A stretch of DNA of 15,331 bases from a virus (IMGVR_UViG_2648501437_000028), one strand, 5' to 3'. Positions 3,890 through 14,020 are shown, counted from the stretch's first letter. Translations and numbers: made by a program. The notes: a model not told the origin generated them from the sequence alone.

Positions 3890-4185
3890 CAGTACACCCC
3901 CACATCACGGTAAGCCGTCCAGAGTGCGCCTATCGTCATGGGTACGCGTGTTTTTGCGTTATCCGCGACAATCTGGCGATTTTCATACAGGTGAGCGATA
4001 AACATCATGCAGCCAATCTTTATGGCTGGCGTGAACTCCAGCCCGTCATCAAAGCGCCTGCCTATGTGTATCTGGCACGCCTCAAGCGATGCGGCAATGT
4101 ATCCGCTGATTAACTGGTCTTCATCGTCGCCATCGATGCGGCAATGGAGTTTCACTTCTTCCAGGGTGATAAGTTCTTCTGTCAT
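3889..4185 (-). CDS. Head-tail connector (gp6-like) protein
   Basis: 98 aa between adaptor and HNH; ATGA overlap with the adaptor stop. Assigned by size, position and general resemblance. Confidence 0.55.
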   Translation of the reverse strand: MTEELITLEEVKLHCRIDGDDEDQLISGYIAASLEACQIHIGRRFDDGLEFTPAIKIGCMMFIAHLYENRQIVADNAKTRVPMTIGALWTAYRDVGVY

Positions 4186-7786: not shown

Positions 7787-8059
7787 TTATCTGTCCTGGT
7801 AATTTCGCCATATTTCATTACCAGCACCATCCATACCCATTTCGGCATAAGTGCGATCGACCGCCTTTTTCAGGTCTCCGTAGTTATCCGGCGGCTCCGG
7901 TGGCCTCTGTGCCTTCCTGGAACATTCCAGCCGTCGCATCGTGATGTGATGCCGTTCCTTGTCTGTCTCCACCAGTTGCATGACTTCACCCCATCGCGCC
8001 GACGCTCTCCGGTAAAAGCCTTTCGCCTCCAGTTCTTCCGCTATGCGGTCATGTACCAT
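7787..8059 (-). CDS. PerC-family transcriptional regulator-like protein
   Basis: About 90 aa from the ATG at 8059 (the track start at 8068 is GTG); AEELEAKGFYRRASARWGEVM resembles the PerC/Pch N-terminal signature; GAGGGGTGGGG Shine-Dalgarno upstream. Confidence 0.6.
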   Translation of the reverse strand: MVHDRIAEELEAKGFYRRASARWGEVMQLVETDKERHHITMRRLECSRKAQRPPEPPDNYGDLKKAVDRTYAEMGMDGAGNEIWRNYQDR

Positions 8060-8071
8060 CGTCCCCACCCC

Positions 8072-9045: not shown

Positions 9046-10800
9046 TTATAAAAACGCGTCGCACTCGTCTGTTGTTATTGCGTTAGTCTGCGTTACTCCC
9101 TTAACTTTCCGCGTAATATATTCATGTCCGTAAACTTTCGCGGCTGGCTTCATAGCCTTGCCAAAGTCATTTACGTTTAGCGGTTTGCTCCTGCCTGCGT
9201 ACGCCATAAACGCCAGATAGACGCGGTAAAGGCTGTTTCTGGTCGTGTACTTCACTGAATCGCCACCGCCGCCCATCATCAGGCCGCGTGCTTCCTCCAG
9301 AAAATTCAGGAACTGGCAAAACTCAATAACCGGATCCGTCTGTTGCTTTATTGCCAGAGCTTCATCACCGTCACGCTGTTCCAGTAGTAAAGCCCGTGCC
9401 TTCTCAGGGTCGGTAAAGTTCGCCAGCAATCGGCGGATAATGACAGGGATTTCAGCCGCGATCTTTTCCGGTAGCTCCCTGTCTTTTTCGGCCTCACTGA
9501 CGATATTGTCGAAACGGAAAATCACGCGACGACGTGCCACACCTCCGGCCCGTTCGGTGAATATCATCGGGTTATTGTTGGTCGCCAGCACCACCGCCCT
9601 GATTACCGCCGTGAAACGCTTTTCGTATTTCGGGTTAATTTCCACGGGGTCACCGCCCGTGATTTTCTTGATGCCCGTTCCTTCGCCTGTATATTTCGGC
9701 TGGTCAGCCAGGACGATAAGACGACTCCCGACAACCTGCGCACGTCCACCAGCATCATCAAGCGATGTCATTTCAGCGCTTACCGTGTTCTGTTTCCCTG
9801 CCAGAAGGCTGGCTATGTGTGTGAATGTACTTTTACCGCTCCCGCCGTCTCCGGTGGCCTCAATAAACATCTGCCAGTCGTACCGGTTCGCCATAATCAT
9901 GTACAGCGCGGCACATATACGCATCATCTTGCGCGGGTCTTTTCCGGCTGCGTGCTCAAGCCATTTATGAAAGTTTGGCGCGTTATCGCGGATGTTCTCC
10001 CCTGGTGCTGGTGGCGTGTACTCAATGCCGTTGTGCGTGGTGATCCAGTTCTCCGGCGTGTGCGGGGAAAATTCCCCCGTTTTCAGGTCAAGCGCACCAT
10101 TGGCGAACGGCAACAAATCGCCGGACGGCTCGCCCATTGGTTCGGCAATAACTTTTAACGCTTCCACGGCGTTATTGATTACGCGCTTGCTGAAAGTGGC
10201 CCTGTGCTCTGAATAGATCGCCACCATTTCGCGGCTAAGTTCCATTGTGCTGACCGGACACCATACCCCGCCGCGCCATACGTGAACGATTTCACTTTCA
10301 GGATGTACGCAAACGCCATCAAAGCGATCGGCAAGCAGCTGCGCGCGCTCACTGTCCGCCATCTGCGAAAGTTGCGCCTTTTGCTTTACCGGAAGCTCAA
10401 TGACCAGACCATCAGAAAGATTCTGGCGCTCACGGGCCAGATATTCGCGCCAGTTCTCCACCTTCTGACCGTGCATACCATCAGGGTAAAAATTTGCATC
10501 CTGTACGCCTGCCGCCGCCAGCTTCTGACCAATCGCCTTTATCATTACTGGCGCAAGATATCCGGCCCTGAATATGCGCACGGATTTTCTGCCTTCCGGC
10601 ACAATTTGCAGCTTATCCAGTTCGGATAACTGCTGCTCCCCAAGCCACACAGGAGGCTCATTATCTCCGGCCATACGCGCGTCATGTTCCTGCCATTGTT
10701 TTGCGTGTGACCAGGCATCACTACCCGCAAAAATAATGACTTCTGTTTCTTTGTGTTTTATGCCGCGTGACTGCTGTTTTACGTTCGGTGCCAGTTTCAT
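9046..10800 (-). CDS. Primase/helicase, P4-alpha-like (TOPRIM-like N-terminus plus SF3/D5-type NTPase)
   Basis: 584 aa; Walker A GDGGSGKST, Walker B-like LIVLADQ; N-terminal acidic primase-like segment; ATGA overlap with the upstream gene. Confidence 0.8.
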   Translation of the reverse strand: MKLAPNVKQQSRGIKHKETEVIIFAGSDAWSHAKQWQEHDARMAGDNEPPVWLGEQQLSELDKLQIVPEGRKSVRIFRAGYLAPVMIKAIGQKLAAAGVQDANFYPDGMHGQKVENWREYLARERQNLSDGLVIELPVKQKAQLSQMADSERAQLLADRFDGVCVHPESEIVHVWRGGVWCPVSTMELSREMVAIYSEHRATFSKRVINNAVEALKVIAEPMGEPSGDLLPFANGALDLKTGEFSPHTPENWITTHNGIEYTPPAPGENIRDNAPNFHKWLEHAAGKDPRKMMRICAALYMIMANRYDWQMFIEATGDGGSGKSTFTHIASLLAGKQNTVSAEMTSLDDAGGRAQVVGSRLIVLADQPKYTGEGTGIKKITGGDPVEINPKYEKRFTAVIRAVVLATNNNPMIFTERAGGVARRRVIFRFDNIVSEAEKDRELPEKIAAEIPVIIRRLLANFTDPEKARALLLEQRDGDEALAIKQQTDPVIEFCQFLNFLEEARGLMMGGGGDSVKYTTRNSLYRVYLAFMAYAGRSKPLNVNDFGKAMKPAAKVYGHEYITRKVKGVTQTNAITTDECDAFL

Positions 10801-11096
10801 TTTTTACCCCTGAATCCGTTAATCATGGTTTTCAGCTTCTGGATGTTTGCCCGTGCCCTGGCGTTGCTGGTGGACACGTTATGCGGCGCGGTCTGTACCA
10901 GAGAAAAATCACGCCGGAACTGATAAACAGGCATCACGCAATCATATTCGTAACCTTCACGGCGGTAGGTTACGCGCCGTTCTTCCACGCCCTTAATCAT
11001 TACCGTGCCGCCGTACTGGTCGCGGTAAATATCGCCGCGCGTAAATTTAGGGTGAGTGTTGCCACTGGCAGTTAAGCCAGAATATTTAAGTTTCAT
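10797..11096 (-). CDS. Hypothetical 99-aa protein, translationally coupled to the primase
   Basis: ORF track; GGAGA Shine-Dalgarno before the ATG at 11096. Confidence 0.5.
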   Translation of the reverse strand: MKLKYSGLTASGNTHPKFTRGDIYRDQYGGTVMIKGVEERRVTYRREGYEYDCVMPVYQFRRDFSLVQTAPHNVSTSNARARANIQKLKTMINGFRGKK

Positions 11097-11101
11097 TATT
11101 T

Positions 11102-11335
11102 TTATTCTCCGGTGTGCTGTTCTTTATATCTGTCGTGCAATAGATCTATTTCTTGCAGTTCCATTATTACAGGCTCAAGAAGCGTTATTAATGCCGTGGC
11201 AATTCTTGATTTTTGTTTGTCGCGTTCATTGTCGCCAAGTGTTTCAAGCCATATGCGCAATATTTCCAGCATGTTTTCACTGTGAGAAAGTGCAAGAAAT
11301 GCGCGGTCTATTGTTTCGTGGTAAATATCACGCAT
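11102..11335 (-). CDS. Hypothetical 77-aa protein
   Basis: ORF track; GAGGA before the ATG at 11335. Confidence 0.5.
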   Translation of the reverse strand: MRDIYHETIDRAFLALSHSENMLEILRIWLETLGDNERDKQKSRIATALITLLEPVIMELQEIDLLHDRYKEQHTGE

Positions 11336-11401
11336 GGCTTACATCCTCAGGAAATTTTCTTCTATAACGCGCCTCTGCCACATATTCCGCATAATCGGCG
11401 G

Positions 11402-11560
11402 CGATATTCAGTACATCAAGCCCCGTTGATTTATATTCTCTCGTGGAAAGTAAGAAAAAGCCGCTCTAATAAGTTCTGGCATTGACGAAAGCGCATCAGC
11501 CGCATCATCAGGAACGCCGGAAAATTCCTGTTTCAGGGAATTAAAACGATCATCACGCAT
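11402..11560 (-). CDS. Possible 52-aa small protein (below the track length cutoff)
   Basis: ATG at 11560 preceded by AGGGGGG and overlapping the upstream stop (ATGCGTGA); translates MRDDRFNSLKQEFSGVPDDAADALSSMPELIRAAFSYFPRENINQRGLMY. Confidence 0.3.
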
Positions 11561-11918
11561 GTTTACCCCCCTGAATGACCTGATAACCGCAACTGGTCAG
11601 CAACTCGATAAATTCCGGCAGTGTGCCGAAACAGCAATCATCACGCAGCCGTTCACAGGATACCTCGACGCCGTTTTCGTAGTGACTCACCATACATCCG
11701 GTAAAATGCAGATCATCATCGTGATGGCTCGTTGACGGCTTAATCAGTCGCGCACGTTCCGCCAGTTCCAGCAATGCTTCAACGCTTCCGGCAATTGCAC
11801 CATCCGGCAGGTGATAATTACGCACTATGCGCCCGTTCTCCACATTGACCAGCAACTGCCCGGTAAATTTCTCATCAAACTGAATGCTGTTAAGGTCAGA
11901 AATTGACAGATTATGCAT
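11553..11918 (-). CDS. Hypothetical ~121-aa protein
   Basis: ORF track gives 11553-11936; the internal ATG at 11918 has a perfect AGGAGG 7 nt upstream and overlaps the upstream stop. Confidence 0.5.
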   Translation of the reverse strand: MHNLSISDLNSIQFDEKFTGQLLVNVENGRIVRNYHLPDGAIAGSVEALLELAERARLIKPSTSHHDDDLHFTGCMVSHYENGVEVSCERLRDDCCFGTLPEFIELLTSCGYQVIQGGKHA

Positions 11919-12351
11919 GGTGCACCTCCTGCACATCAGCCATGATAATTTTTCCGGCCTTATCCAGTGCCTGATCGGCTTTTAGCTGCACAAATGCTAA
12001 ATGGAAGATGCATTCTGATTCTCTGGCTGCGTGTTTATGCGCCCTGTCAGCAATAACAGAAATATCAATAAGCGCGTGCATCAGCGTAGTGAGCGCGGCG
12101 GCGGCTGCGTCCGGTGTGGTTTTATTGCACATGTACCCCTCCGCATTTTTTTCGTTAGAAATAAGCGTTCTTCTTTCCTGTTCATCGCTCAGGAATACGC
12201 AGACCTCACCGCTAAGGCGTTTAAGTAAGCCGATGATTGCCCCTGATTCGCTGTCGGTCATCATGCTAGGGTAATCCTCTGCCAGTGCGCAAATAACTTC
12301 GATTTGGTGGGCGCGTTCTGCTGCCTGTTGTAGTGTGATTTCCTGGCTCAT
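11911..12351 (-). CDS. Hypothetical 146-aa protein
   Basis: ORF track; ATGA overlap with the upstream 66-aa ORF. Confidence 0.5.
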   Translation of the reverse strand: MSQEITLQQAAERAHQIEVICALAEDYPSMMTDSESGAIIGLLKRLSGEVCVFLSDEQERRTLISNEKNAEGYMCNKTTPDAAAAALTTLMHALIDISVIADRAHKHAARESECIFHLAFVQLKADQALDKAGKIIMADVQEVHHA

Positions 12352-12548
12352 AAGCCTACCCCCTGACGAATACGGGCAGCAAATACCATCACGCAGCCAG
12401 CCGGAGATTGCTGGCGTGCTTCCTGTTCGCTGGTGGCCTCAATGGTAATCACGCGCGGTTGTGCCGTGCTCAGGGCGATAAAACGCCAGATGTATTTATT
12501 CAGGTTGTGCGAGTCCCGCCCTTGCGGGTGTGTGGTATGATTTCTCAT
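12348..12548 (-). CDS. Hypothetical 66-aa protein, first gene of the leftward operon
   Basis: ATG at 12548 preceded by GAGGTAG; it is the 3' part of the 384-aa track ORF, whose upstream extension I reject. Confidence 0.45.
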   Translation of the reverse strand: MRNHTTHPQGRDSHNLNKYIWRFIALSTAQPRVITIEATSEQEARQQSPAGCVMVFAARIRQGVGL

Positions 12549-12583
12549 AGCTACCTCGATACTCTCGTTATCGTTGGTGGTTA

Positions 12584-12724
12584 GAAGCCCCGTTACTGCT
12601 CCAACAGTGCGGGGCTTCGTCGTTTCAATTGCTGAATTGCATGTATCAGCACTTGTGGTATTCACATTACATTTAGGTGAATACCATTTCAAGTCTTTTT
12701 TGGTATTCACTTTTGTATTACACT
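12584..12724. promoter_or_regulatory. Divergent control region: long hairpin GAAGCCCCG...CGGGGCTTC (12584-12618) and operator-like repeats TGGTATTCAC-N11-GTGAATACCA (12656-12686), TGGTATTCAC (12701-12710), GTATTACAC (12715-12723)
   Basis: Read directly; lies between the start of the leftward operon (12548) and the start of the RHH gene (12754). Confidence 0.5.
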
Positions 12725-12753
12725 GCATCCCGTTATTAATGGGAGGTGCAAAC

Positions 12754-13059
12754 ATGTCCAGGAGTTCTGTTAACAATAAGTCACAGCAACTGAATGCCAG
12801 ATTTCCACATGAAGTAGTGAGTGGCATTGAGGCATCCCTACAGTCAGGGGAAACTAAAGCGAATTTTATAGTTACGGCTGTACGCGGTGAGATCGCCCGG
12901 CGCCAGGCAGAAGGAAGTGGAGAAAATCCCCTGGTTTCTTCGCTCGATGCACTGGCGCAGGTGGAAAAACTCGGAATCAAAGCCGCCGAGGAGATCGGGC
13001 AGCTCGTCACTGTCGCACGTGAAGAACTCCAGCGCCGCAAGACCAAAGAACCAGAGTAA
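12754..13059 (+). CDS. Ribbon-helix-helix (CopG/Arc/MetJ-like) DNA-binding protein; candidate repressor of the switch
   Basis: 101 aa from the ATG at 12754 (GGGAGGTG Shine-Dalgarno); N-terminal NARFPHEVVSGIEASLQSGETKANFIVTAVRGEIARR fits a beta-strand/helix/helix pattern; the track ORF starts further upstream at 12574. Confidence 0.55.
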   Translation: MSRSSVNNKSQQLNARFPHEVVSGIEASLQSGETKANFIVTAVRGEIARRQAEGSGENPLVSSLDALAQVEKLGIKAAEEIGQLVTVAREELQRRKTKEPE

Positions 13060-13116
13060 TCACCATCAGCGCCGTGGTGTAAGGTATTACGGCGCATTGC
13101 TATGCAGGACAACACA

Positions 13117-13290
13117 ATGACCGATAAAGAATTGACCAAAACATTATCACCGGCACGGAAAAGACGGCGCAGAAAGATAGAGCATGAATCAGAAAGATTC
13201 GCGCCATGTGCTTTTGCCCTTGAGCAATTCCTTAAAGAGTACAGGGAAAAGCGCTCATTGCAGGTATGGCAACGAACTGAACCAGACTGA
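13117..13290 (+). CDS. Small, highly basic 57-aa protein
   Basis: ATG at 13117 with AGGAC upstream (track ORF starts at 13102); contains the RKRRRRK run; function unknown. Confidence 0.4.
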   Translation: MTDKELTKTLSPARKRRRRKIEHESERFAPCAFALEQFLKEYREKRSLQVWQRTEPD

Positions 13291-13385
13291 TTGCATTGCC
13301 CACCAGCCTGATAACGGCTATCATCCCCGTGCTTATGTTTGGGATCACACACACAAACGGCGCAGCGGGTTATCTGTTCAGAAAG

Positions 13386-13413
13386 GCGGCTCCATTTCGG
13401 GGCCGCTTTTTTT
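13386..13413 (+). terminator. Intrinsic terminator, possibly bidirectional, between the convergent plus-strand pair and alpA
   Basis: GCGGCTCC-ATTTC-GGGGCCGC stem (one G-U pair) followed by TTTTTTT on the plus strand; A-run on the other side. Confidence 0.6.
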
Positions 13414-13559
13414 ATACCTGAAAAACCCCAATTTTGTTGTTTTTCAGTTTCACCAGGGCGAACGAATCCCCGCCCACGTTCTGGCGTATATTCAATCTTC
13501 ATGGTTATAGCTCTGTGTTCAGATGATTGATGTGTGGCGGCTGCGTGCCGCCAGCGTGA

Positions 13560-13748
13560 TTAATGAACTGCCTTGCAGCTATCCTTCCAGGCCAGAACCT
13601 CGGATAAAGACCAGCCAACGGAACGACCGCCAAGTTTACGACGTGATGGGAATTGTCCGGCCTTTTCCAGGCGGTAGCGACACGTACGGCTAAGGCCGGT
13701 TAGTTTTTCGCATTCTTTTTCACGTATAAACCGATCAGTGCTTAACAC
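13560..13748 (-). CDS. alpA: AlpA/Vis-family (excisionase-like) regulator
   Basis: LTGLSRTCRYRLEKAGQFPSRRKLGGRSVGWSLSEVLAWK matches the AlpA-type winged-HTH pattern. I prefer the GTG start at 13748 (AGGGGGG 5 nt upstream, ~62 aa) over the track TTG start at 13829. Confidence 0.7.
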   Translation of the reverse strand: MLSTDRFIREKECEKLTGLSRTCRYRLEKAGQFPSRRKLGGRSVGWSLSEVLAWKDSCKAVH

Positions 13749-14020
13749 TATTGCCCCCCTTTCGTTTCTTAAAGAGTCATCAGGTGTCTTATTGTGTCGT
13801 ATTGTTCCCGCTAGAGTGATGAATGGCAAATACTGAGGATGTATGATTTACAGAAAATGAAACAGTAAGAATAAAATCTTTTAAATTCATGTTAATACAA
13901 AGGCATAAAATATTGTTCCATGCCTTTTTTCTCGCTCTTTAAAGAGTGATTCGCTAGTGTACAAAAAACCAGTAACACATTAAAAATCAGCTACTTATAA
14001 ATCCGTACGCTTTTTCGCCT

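Follow-up and report, generated by a model that had tools for sequence, protein, structure and literature searches.

Seven small genes precede the primase of a predicted capsid-forming PICI in tqsA, among them an Icd-like gene and rgdR

What do the small genes upstream of a satellite primase encode, and which role do they have in the element? The question is raised by the window studied here, a stretch of 15,331 nucleotides of viral DNA (IMGVR_UViG_2648501437_000028), in which an earlier note had marked six small ORFs at 10797-12548. The note described them as an operon of unknown proteins in the most likely place for new biology in the element, possibly with helper-sensing, helper-interference or accessory defence functions.

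Judged by gene content, the element in the window is a capsid-forming PICI (cf-PICI) inserted in tqsA. A cf-PICI was recognized by the presence of int, alpA and pri-rep together with its own capsid, protease, portal, connector, HNH, TerS and TerL genes, by the absence of tail and lysis genes and by a size of about 10-18 kb. This gene content is found in the RefSeq annotation of a 99.8%-identical locus of ~15.2 kb that is bounded by tqsA fragments. The gene order there is int, an AlpA-type regulator, an Icd-like gene, five hypotheticals, DUF4222, primase, ssb and PerC, and the later genes encode capsid, protease, portal, connectors, HNH, TerS and TerL. In the window, AlpA, the early-gene activator in Gram-negative PICIs, is encoded at 13560-13757 (minus strand; PF05930, E 6e-17). 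The gene that follows the small ORFs in the operon, at 9046-10800 on the same strand, encodes a D5/P4-type primase-helicase (pri-rep) of 584 aa with D5_N, DUF5906 and Pox_D5 domains (TIGR01613, 109.1 bits; phrog_864, E 1e-175). The 1.75 kb of the small genes is also present in a second element, for which a major capsid and a head decoration protein are annotated and portal and terminase are not, as in EcCICFT073.

The element thus belongs to a described satellite family, of the type EcCIEDL933/OI-51, and PICIs of the EcCICFT073 type share its early module. EcCIEDL933 is the prototype cf-PICI in the PICI literature and the only one for which helper-dependent induction and transfer with helper tails have been demonstrated. 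As many sequenced E. coli genomes already have the region annotated and the family is described, it is less promising as a place for new biology than the earlier note expected; the middle genes are uncharacterized.

Among the closest published systems is OI-51 (CP-933C, Sp7) of E. coli O157:H7, which comprises ECs1577-ECs1582 with ECs1581 as rgdR (Flockhart et al. 2012, PMC3378721). It shares with the window, in identical order, int, an Icd-like gene, small overlapping genes, a gene 5-like gene (ECs1580, distantly related to gene 5 of the window) and rgdR, followed by a primase of the P4/D5 type, ssb and a PerC/PchE-like regulator. The two elements differ in several respects. Sakai has ECs1578, which is absent in the window, but no genes 2b, 3 and 4; identity between the Icd-like proteins is only 53%; the primase has 710 aa in Sakai versus 584 aa in the window; the Sakai element is integrated next to roxA, whereas that of the window lies in tqsA; and two genes are frameshifted in the window. 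EcCICFT073 and the ED1a element likewise have an AlpA-activated early operon with pri-rep, and the reports on them assign no function to what lies between alpA and rgdR (PMC6092414). The ED1a element occupies the same site as the window element, between ydgD and ydgG (tqsA), but its RgdR carries R20C whereas that of the window keeps R20, and EcCICFT073 differs from the window in having no full capsid and terminase module. A similar layout is found in the left operon of satellite P4, where small early genes, including the one for the helper derepressor epsilon, precede the related alpha primase-helicase. A tblastn search of 50,697 phage records with the Icd-like protein, RgdR and the five concatenated middle proteins returned no P4 record, on the assumption that P4 was included.

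Six real ORFs can be read on the minus strand of the window, namely 12348-12548 (66 aa), 11911-12351 (146 aa), 11553-11918 (121 aa), 11408-11560 (50 aa), 11102-11335 (77 aa) and 10797-11096 (99 aa). Of the size range of 52-146 aa given earlier, the upper value stands and the lower becomes 50 aa. A G-rich Shine-Dalgarno (SD) sequence lies 5-10 nt upstream of every start, and most junctions overlap (-4, -8, -8, +72, +5 and -4 nt in order, the last one into the primase), both as previously described. The ORFs are tightly coupled and run into the satellite primase, which agrees with their placement in the first part of the main operon. Three copies of the motif CATGC[AG]T[AG]A were counted over 4.6 kb, all of them at gene junctions, where ~0.07 occurrences are expected. 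No terminator-like sites were found on the coding strand inside the region. A structured leader (12549-12660, minus strand) is located directly upstream of the Icd-like gene: the RNA fold of 12480-12660 has -54 kcal/mol (z -4.2), and none of 200 shuffles folds as well. An Rfam search of the leader up to E = 1 gave no C4 or other RNA family, apart from a spurious RsaJ match. No sigma-70 promoter-like site was detected in the interval from the start of the Icd-like gene to the divergent YlcI/YnfO gene, the promoter and terminator scan performing at chance level.

The count of six ORFs is correct for the window as it reads, but near-identical elements carry seven genes. Compared over 1,752 bp with NZ_CP054236, the window shows only two differences, both 1-bp homopolymer deletions. 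The first, A8 to A7 at 12153, joins the 76-aa gene 2a and the 73-aa gene 2b into the ORF of 146 aa. The second, T6 to T5 at 11460, cuts gene 4 from 77 to 50 aa and produces the sole long intergenic gap; past this frameshift, the other frame stays open for 42 codons, up to the conserved junction. The intact operon, as deduced from this comparison, has seven genes, of which two or three are altered in the window's copy. The frameshift alleles are rare: their exact 71-mers were found in 2 of 257 (A8 to A7) and 2 of 678 (T6 to T5, gene 4) complete genomes. In public assemblies 23 contigs carry the fused 146-aa protein and 734 the 50-aa protein, while the intact genes each occur on at least 1000. 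Because they recur in public assemblies, the frameshift alleles are probably real lineage alleles, with sequencing error as the less probable source. The frameshifts alter two or three middle genes, which the element can therefore probably do without. We rejected programmed -1 frameshifting at the run of eight A: gene 2b is in the +1 frame, so that a fusion of 2a and 2b requires a 1-nt deletion or transcriptional slippage. The practical yield for the window consists of such corrections: seven genes instead of six, two or three of them altered by frameshifts and two in known families.

We consider the ORFs genuine genes and not chance ORFs, based on the RefSeq annotation of near-identical loci, on a PHROG family match for each ORF (E 1e-18 to 1e-45) and on pairwise dN/dS values of 0.08-0.85, mostly <0.5. 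The description as six unknown proteins without a recognizable motif applies to the middle genes, for which no function is known, and fails for the first and last ORF. Gene 1 (12348-12548, minus strand) encodes a basic protein of 66 aa (pI 10.7) that matches NF033153 (phage_ICD_like) with 69.9 bits (E 1.4e-19; cut-off 25), where Icd of phage P1 itself scores 52.6 bits. A single BLASTP comparison of gene 1 with P1 Icd gave a short match, 35% identity over 43 aa (E 2e-6). The gene is preceded by the SD sequence GAGG, overlaps the next gene by ATGA and heads the operon in every related locus examined. By family, it is an Icd-type cell-division inhibitor, and inhibition of division is predicted accordingly. 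The P1 immI operon (c4 RNA, icd, ant1/2) is organized alike, with a homologous icd as first cistron after a structured regulatory RNA and an ATGA overlap into the next gene. In contrast to P1, the window has no C4 RNA detectable with Rfam and its downstream genes are not Ant homologues; the P1 operon controls antirepressor synthesis, whereas the operon in the window leads into the replicase.

Gene 6 (10797-11096, minus strand), whose stop overlaps the primase start (ATGA), encodes an RgdR orthologue of 99 aa with pI 10.2. It covers the whole PF13973 (DUF4222) model with 85.7 bits (gathering threshold 27; E 1.6e-24) and is 80% identical to ECs1581 over residues 1-99, a protein of 99 aa with pI 10.09 (PMC3378721). 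RgdR raises LEE1 expression and lowers motility, as shown for ECs1581 and C1493 of CFT073, and binds DNA weakly and non-specifically; its RGD motif is needed for activation of type III secretion and for DNA binding (PMC3378721). The RgdR of the window falls in the same 90% cluster as CFT073 AAN79962.1, which we infer to be C1493, and its RGD motif is intact (R20-G21-D22). Across the DUF4222 family G21 and D22 are invariant and R20 is found in only 21 of 40 members, which rules out LEE activation as the family's core function. All analyzed E. coli PICIs are said to encode RgdR.

Between these two ends lie genes 2a, 2b, 3, 4 and 5. Gene 2a (12122-12351, minus strand) encodes an acidic protein of 76 aa when intact (WP_000076675) that matches phrog_1478 over residues 2-62 and is 52% identical to Sakai ECs1579. 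Alone among the middle genes, it is distantly related to genes of true temperate phages, both in Klebsiella phages and in the Fels-1 early-left operon. Gene 2b (11911-12132, minus strand; 73 aa; phrog_5146, E 1.2e-40) has kept its own ATG and frame and is read in the window as the C-terminal half of the fusion. Gene 3 (11553-11918, minus strand; phrog_340, E 1.7e-28), starting at an SD-preceded ATG, encodes an acidic protein of 121 aa that consists of two tandem copies of a unit of ~55 aa with a beta-hairpin plus helix. Its AlphaFold model, built on an alignment of 34 sequences, is poor (pLDDT 51) and was not used for a fold search, but the secondary structure appears twice; a search against PDB sequences gave no match. 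The matches to gene 3 form 70 clusters, the named ones being only from E. coli, E. albertii and Salmonella, and the gene occurs in single-repeat and repeat-recombined forms. Gene 4 (11328-11560, minus strand; phrog_24341, E 4e-18) has 77 aa when intact. Gene 5 (11102-11335, minus strand; phrog_2196, E 8e-42) encodes an acidic protein of 77 aa and is the most persistent middle gene, usually directly upstream of rgdR. An exhaustive search among 1.84 billion proteins yielded only 9 representatives of it, and divergent homologues take the same position in two minimal operons (L009 and L010) and in Sakai (ECs1580).

Together, the middle genes form a block of exchangeable small acidic proteins, one to five per element, that is almost confined to satellites. 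In every annotated related E. coli locus examined, the Icd-like gene is first, DUF4222 is last and one to five genes lie between them. Natural in-frame fusions occur (2b::4, 3::4, Icd::3N and AntA::3C); in O157:H7, gene 2b is fused to gene 4 in a protein of 154 aa, which accounts for the shared phrog_2512 matches. Paralogy among the seven proteins was ruled out by all-against-all BLASTP. Pfam, NCBIfam and PADLOC contain no family for genes 2a, 2b, 3, 4 and 5, PHROGs only families of unknown function, and PDB sequence and profile searches with the 2a/2b fusion, gene 3, gene 5 and DUF4222 returned nothing below E 0.4. A cf-PICI preprint likewise describes that a gene located downstream of alpA is variable and has no known function.

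On balance, we favor the reading that an AlpA-dependent early operon begins with this region, in a cf-PICI of the EcCIEDL933/OI-51 family. For EcCICFT073 it was demonstrated experimentally that helper phages induce alpA and that AlpA activates the downstream genes, and PICIs are reported not to induce their helpers (PMC6092414). Following this precedent, a helper would switch on alpA and AlpA would activate the early genes. A single transcript would extend from the structured leader through these genes, and the overlaps of 4 and 8 nt suggest that translation is handed from gene to gene by overlapping stop and start codons. The Icd-like protein may then halt host division or growth during replication and packaging of the satellite, as its homology to P1 Icd and a system in strain ECOR61, described below, would suggest. 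For the one to five small acidic proteins, binding to proteins of helper or host and modulation of induction, toxicity or interference would be the most probable roles. RgdR, a predicted small basic beta-barrel plus helix, would alter transcription, and the primase-helicase would replicate the excised element. Against this reading, the effects published for RgdR concern host genes and no functions of the satellite.

An unlikely alternative is that the block is primarily an abortive-infection or superinfection-exclusion system, in which one or several of the small proteins sense a phage protein and release an Icd-like toxin that arrests or kills the cell, its position in the early operon being incidental. 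It draws on the 'prophage-encoded superinfection exclusion system' of ECOR61 (Silas et al., bioRxiv 10.1101/2023.04.06.535777). In that system, expression of the phage accessory protein orf24 reportedly leads to growth arrest or death, and Tn5 suppressors of this death map to an Icd-like gene and two adjacent small genes. Reconstitution is weak there and needs all six linked genes, primase included; without the Icd-like gene the effect is lost. Like the window, ECOR61 has an Icd-like gene first, small overlapping genes and a DNA primase, a likeness set by gene order, lengths and overlaps and not by sequence. The passages on this system do not call the locus a PICI and do not mention RgdR. With reported lengths of 186 and 192 nt and overlaps of 8 and 1 nt, the two suppressor genes of ECOR61 equal ECs1578/ECs1579 of Sakai Sp7; its middle genes are probably Sakai-type, unlike those of the window.

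In a second case, P22 Abc1 reportedly triggers death through a P4-type satellite of ECOR15, and fast-evolving, exchangeable and nearly satellite-confined middle genes are as expected of specificity determinants. The earlier suggestion of helper-sensing or defence functions is partly supported, in so far as a same-layout operon of ECOR61 reportedly arrests growth on a phage protein, but no PADLOC model matches any of the proteins (PADLOC-DB, seven intact-form proteins, E <= 0.1). Neither the PICI literature covered nor our analysis yielded a capsid-size or helper-interference activity of these genes. The genes also sit in the operon from which all related elements express their replicase, and two middle genes are frameshifted in the window. 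Moreover, both published toxicities needed the primase, and the ECOR15 suppressors lie in int and AlpA as well as in the Icd-like gene, a hypothetical gene and the primase. The need for the primase in ECOR61 implies that toxicity could stem from runaway replication rather than from Icd, and the overall pattern fits satellite induction with runaway replication, itself harmful (PMC6092414).

A doubtful, bolder combination of the early-operon reading with the exclusion system is that the satellite early operon contains a module for phage-triggered growth arrest, made up of the Icd-like gene, the exchangeable small genes and rgdR. In such a module, the small acidic proteins would recognize proteins of helper or competitor phages as swappable determinants of specificity, the Icd-like protein would be the effector, and RgdR a miniature CarD-like RNA-polymerase cofactor with a Tudor-like barrel and a basic DNA-contacting helix. 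If true, a CarD-like RgdR would explain its pleiotropic effects on host genes, and one satellite operon would have been seen from two sides, as the published 'exclusion system' of ECOR61 and as the virulence regulator RgdR.

The ECOR61 system, RgdR of OI-51 and the PICI early operon are probably one unit, which would join three separate literatures, and the module includes RgdR, by which type III secretion is raised in EHEC. Should the ECOR61 link hold, the exchangeable middle genes would offer a tractable model of how satellites vary their sensing or targets.

It is improbable that the small proteins are ordinary replication accessory factors of the satellite, such as origin-binding proteins, helicase loaders or primase cofactors. 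The genes do lie directly upstream of the replicase, to which rgdR is ATGA-coupled, RgdR binds DNA non-specifically (PMC3378721), and in phage vB_EcoS-733R5 an unannotated DUF4222 ORF of 59 aa overlaps the start of a lambda-O-type replication gene. However, RgdR proteins of 96-98% identity are coupled to unrelated replicases, the D5-type primase here and RepA-type helicases at two other loci (L005 and L007), and more divergent relatives precede DUF927 proteins. The number of middle genes before D5-type primases varies from one to five, and in published variant mapping it is the gene downstream of alpA that varies among Klebsiella cf-PICIs, not their replication genes. Searches of Pfam, NCBIfam, PHROG and PDB showed no homology to routine accessory proteins of replication, which the earlier note, together with no effect on helper phages, had set against its own proposal, and no likeness to loaders, initiators or any solved structure.

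That most middle ORFs are decaying or functionless passengers kept by linkage only is highly improbable: the two frameshifts, some pairwise dN/dS values of 0.7-0.85 and the tiny, taxonomically narrow families with many truncated or fused variants would fit, but most dN/dS values are 0.1-0.5, SD sequences and coupling junctions are conserved, intact genes are common on public contigs and the frames stay open after both frameshifts.

The early operon of a satellite, the reading we prefer, belongs to a module that is widespread in the species: 1,820 of 5,426 complete E. coli genomes contain at least part of the segment's satellite module, and a search of genome contigs with RgdR returned at least two loci.

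The window as a whole matches E. coli chromosomes at 99.8%, and there it is bounded by two fragments of tqsA (ydgG). Annotation of this locus runs from an integrase, an AlpA-type regulator and a YlcI/YnfO protein on the opposite strand, through an Icd-like gene, five hypothetical genes, a DUF4222 gene and a DNA primase, to ssb and PerC, and then to the major capsid, prohead protease, portal, head closure, connector, HNH, and small and large terminase genes. Judged by this gene content, the element is a capsid-forming PICI, a type of phage satellite. The element of strain ED1a sits between ydgD and ydgG, an integration site that it shares with the window element (PMC3378721). The 1.75-kb block recurs in a second element, whose annotation lists a major capsid protein and a head decoration protein and neither portal nor terminase; the latter two are likewise absent from EcCICFT073. 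In EcCICFT073, alpA is induced by helper phages, and AlpA in turn switches on excision, replication and the genes downstream of it (PMC6092414); by analogy, AlpA may control the operon studied here. One record deposited as a phage, LR881103.1 ('Escherichia phage vB_KppS-Ant', 16.5 kb), has a capsid-forming PICI gene set, namely int, an Icd-like gene, two small genes, primase, capsid, portal, connectors and terminases. Among the 'phage' records, it alone gave a tblastn match to the Icd-like protein; its small genes did not match DUF4222.

The region 10797-12548 (-) contains six ORFs: the Icd-like gene 1 (66 aa, 12348-12548), a 146-aa ORF in which genes 2a and 2b are fused (11911-12351), gene 3 (121 aa, 11553-11918, with an ATG start preceded by GGAGG), a shortened gene 4 (50 aa, 11408-11560), gene 5 (77 aa, 11102-11335) and gene 6, which encodes RgdR (99 aa, 10797-11096). 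The Shine-Dalgarno sequences and frequent stop/start overlaps described in the earlier note are borne out, as a G-rich Shine-Dalgarno precedes all six ORFs and the junctions are spaced by -4, -8, -8, +72, +5 and -4 nt, the last leading into the 584-aa primase. Its count of six holds for the ORFs in the window; alignment to NZ_CP054236 gives seven genes for the intact operon. No terminator-like site was found on the coding strand of the region. The small ORFs are annotated by RefSeq in near-identical loci, each ORF matches a PHROG family (E 1e-18 to 1e-45), and dN/dS in pairwise comparisons with diverged copies ranges from 0.08 to 0.85, with most values under 0.5; the ORFs are therefore genes rather than chance readings.

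Part of the region is matched in 1,820 of 5,426 complete E. coli genomes, and at least 80% of it in 129. The related E. coli loci examined that carry annotation all have the Icd-like gene first and the DUF4222 gene last, overlapping the replicase start, with one to five genes in varied combinations between them. The minimal arrangement is Icd, a gene-5-like gene and RgdR; the Nissle arrangement is without gene 3; and one O157:H7 element combines a single-repeat gene 3 with a 154-aa in-frame fusion, 2b::4, which is modeled by phrog_2512. Further natural in-frame fusions are 3::4, Icd::3N, AntA::3C and DUF4222::3. Three window junctions (11919, 11561 and 11336, minus strand) share the motif CATGC[AG]T[AG]A, which encodes a ...His-Ala end and whose stop overlaps the next ATG. 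It does not recur elsewhere in 4.6 kb (expectation ~0.07 occurrences). The motif is a plausible microhomology for gene swapping between elements and may also be a translational coupling signal.

The middle genes 2a, 2b, 3, 4 and 5 encode small acidic proteins (2b near neutral), none of which matched Pfam, NCBIfam, PADLOC or PDB sequences. Gene 5 has nine representatives among 1.84 billion proteins. The matches of gene 3 fall into 70 clusters, and those that are named come only from E. coli, E. albertii and Salmonella. Its protein is built from a beta-hairpin-plus-helix unit present twice, and many single-repeat and repeat-recombined variants exist. Of the five, gene 2a alone is distantly related to genes of true temperate phages, namely among the small early-left-operon genes of Fels-1, and in Klebsiella phages; a search of 50,697 phage records returned no relatives of genes 2b to 5. 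For these five genes no function is known, and their moderate interest lies mainly in a probable link to the ECOR61 phenotype discussed below.

Gene 1 matches NF033153 (Icd-like) with 69.9 bits. The Icd of phage P1 also matches this model, and gene 1 aligns with it directly (E 2e-6, 35% identity over 43 aa). The P1 icd gene lies behind the c4 regulatory RNA and has an ATGA overlap with ant1. The leader upstream of the Icd-like start (12480-12660, minus strand) is predicted to be strongly structured (-54 kcal/mol, z -4.2), with GAAGCCCCG...CGGGGCUUC as a long hairpin; CCCGC-AAGG-GCGGG forms another within the first codons of the gene. No Rfam family, C4 included, matched this leader; it might act as a riboregulator akin to P1 c4 or P4 CI. 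Other E. coli genomes carry the initial ~50 nt of the Icd-like ORF with 100% conservation, and this stretch is annotated as 'ash family protein' in the one related satellite locus compared. Antisense to the leader lies the YlcI/YnfO-family gene (101 aa, 12754-13056, plus strand). The 402-bp segment that carries this gene (12627-13028) is swapped for a different one of ~270 bp in otherwise 99.8%-identical elements, so the 'switch' region is itself mosaic. A 384-aa ORF with the Icd-like domain at its C-terminal end (12348-13502, minus strand) is probably a read-through across the leader and the YlcI/YnfO antisense. PGAP labels pieces of it 'Icd-like pseudogene' or an N-terminally extended Icd-like protein of 123-133 aa; the extension is without a Shine-Dalgarno, and its protein is not conserved in the one related locus compared.

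A functional precedent comes from Silas et al. (bioRxiv 10.1101/2023.04.06.535777). This preprint describes an ECOR61 'prophage' system that causes cell death upon expression of phage orf24, with Tn5 suppressors in an Icd-like gene and two adjoining small genes; the effect is lost when the Icd-like gene is removed. The two small genes measure 186 and 192 nt with overlaps of 8 and 1 nt, and the same lengths and overlaps are found for ECs1578/ECs1579 of Sakai Sp7 (OI-51 of O157:H7), where ECs1580, rgdR and primase follow, six genes in all. Gene 2a shares 52% identity with ECs1579. From this exact match, the six-gene count and the ECs1579 likeness, we infer that the ECOR61 system is an early operon belonging to a satellite of the OI-51 type. 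The same preprint reports that P22 Abc1 triggers death via a P4-type satellite of ECOR15; suppressors there fell in int, AlpA, an Icd-like gene, a hypothetical gene and the primase.

The identity of the element, its gene families and its operon anatomy are established. For the role of the operon, we lean towards early expression induced by the helper, with translation coupled from gene to gene. In this reading the Icd-like protein would arrest division or growth, the exchangeable acidic proteins would modulate helper or host partners, RgdR would change transcription, and the replicase would then amplify the element. A dedicated abortive-infection module is a less probable and rather doubtful reading of the operon: the published toxicity required the primase and, in ECOR15, int and AlpA too, which also fits runaway satellite replication, itself known to be harmful (PMC6092414).

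RgdR matches Pfam DUF4222 with 85.7 bits and is 80% identical to Sakai ECs1581 over the full 99 residues. The earlier note had described six unknown proteins without a recognizable motif, which is true of the five middle genes and wrong for genes 1 and 6; its observation and its interpretation each hold in part, and the element and these two genes had already been described. ECs1581 is RgdR (Flockhart et al., PMC3378721), which turns on LEE1/ler and type III secretion, represses motility, binds DNA weakly and non-specifically, and requires R20 of its RGD motif, the ED1a variant R20C being inactive. R20-G21-D22 is present in the window RgdR, whose 90% cluster includes AAN79962.1 of CFT073, presumably C1493, a variant also tested by Flockhart et al. 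In a 40-sequence alignment of the family, G21, D22 and I23 are invariant and R20 occurs in just 21, which makes LEE activation unlikely as the ancestral role. The AlphaFold model (pLDDT 75 overall, ~90 at residues 20-66) predicts a small five-strand beta-barrel, coinciding with the conserved core 20-68 noted in PMC3378721, followed by a basic helix at 77-96. The window satellite carries two families of LEE-activating regulators, RgdR and PerC/PchE, the latter encoded at 7787-8068 (-), downstream of ssb.

The replicases behind closely similar RgdR copies are unrelated: a D5-type primase follows the window protein, and RepA-type helicases follow copies 96-98% identical to it in two comparison loci (L005 and L007). 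More divergent relatives precede DUF927 proteins. In phage vB_EcoS-733R5 (ON470608.1), an unannotated 59-aa DUF4222 ORF (3980-4159, plus strand) overlaps the true start of the lambda-O-type replication protein O gene; the record annotates an opposite-strand ORF instead. RgdR is thus tied to the pre-replicase position rather than to one replicase, which argues against a specific replicase cofactor. That the operon encodes routine replication accessory factors is improbable, since one RgdR type goes with different kinds of replicase and loci differ in how many middle genes they have.

Over the 1,752 bp, the window differs from E. coli EcPF5 (NZ_CP054236) at exactly two positions, each a 1-bp homopolymer deletion in the window. 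At 12153, A8->A7 brings the 76-aa gene 2a in frame with the downstream 73-aa gene 2b, whose own frame is intact; because of this fusion, the 146-aa ORF matches two different PHROGs end to end. At 11460, T6->T5 shortens gene 4 from 77 to 50 aa, which opens the sole long gap, where 42 codons remain open in the other frame up to the usual 8-nt overlap with gene 5. Decaying passenger genes are a very improbable explanation of the operon in view of purifying selection, conserved coupling and open frames. No complete genome matched 10797-12548 perfectly, and the exact alleles occur in 2/257 (A7) and 2/678 (T5) of them. The exact 146-aa and 50-aa proteins recur on 23 and 734 public contigs, respectively, and both frameshifts are thus probably genuine lineage alleles, with sequencing error as the alternative. 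One of the two exact A7 genomes is a Nissle derivative assembly, whereas the Nissle 1917 reference has A8; this split suggests recurrent slippage, transcriptional slippage or an error in sequencing. The length of this A run (12146-12153), at the 3' end of gene 2a, sets whether 2a and 2b are separate (A8) or fused (A7).
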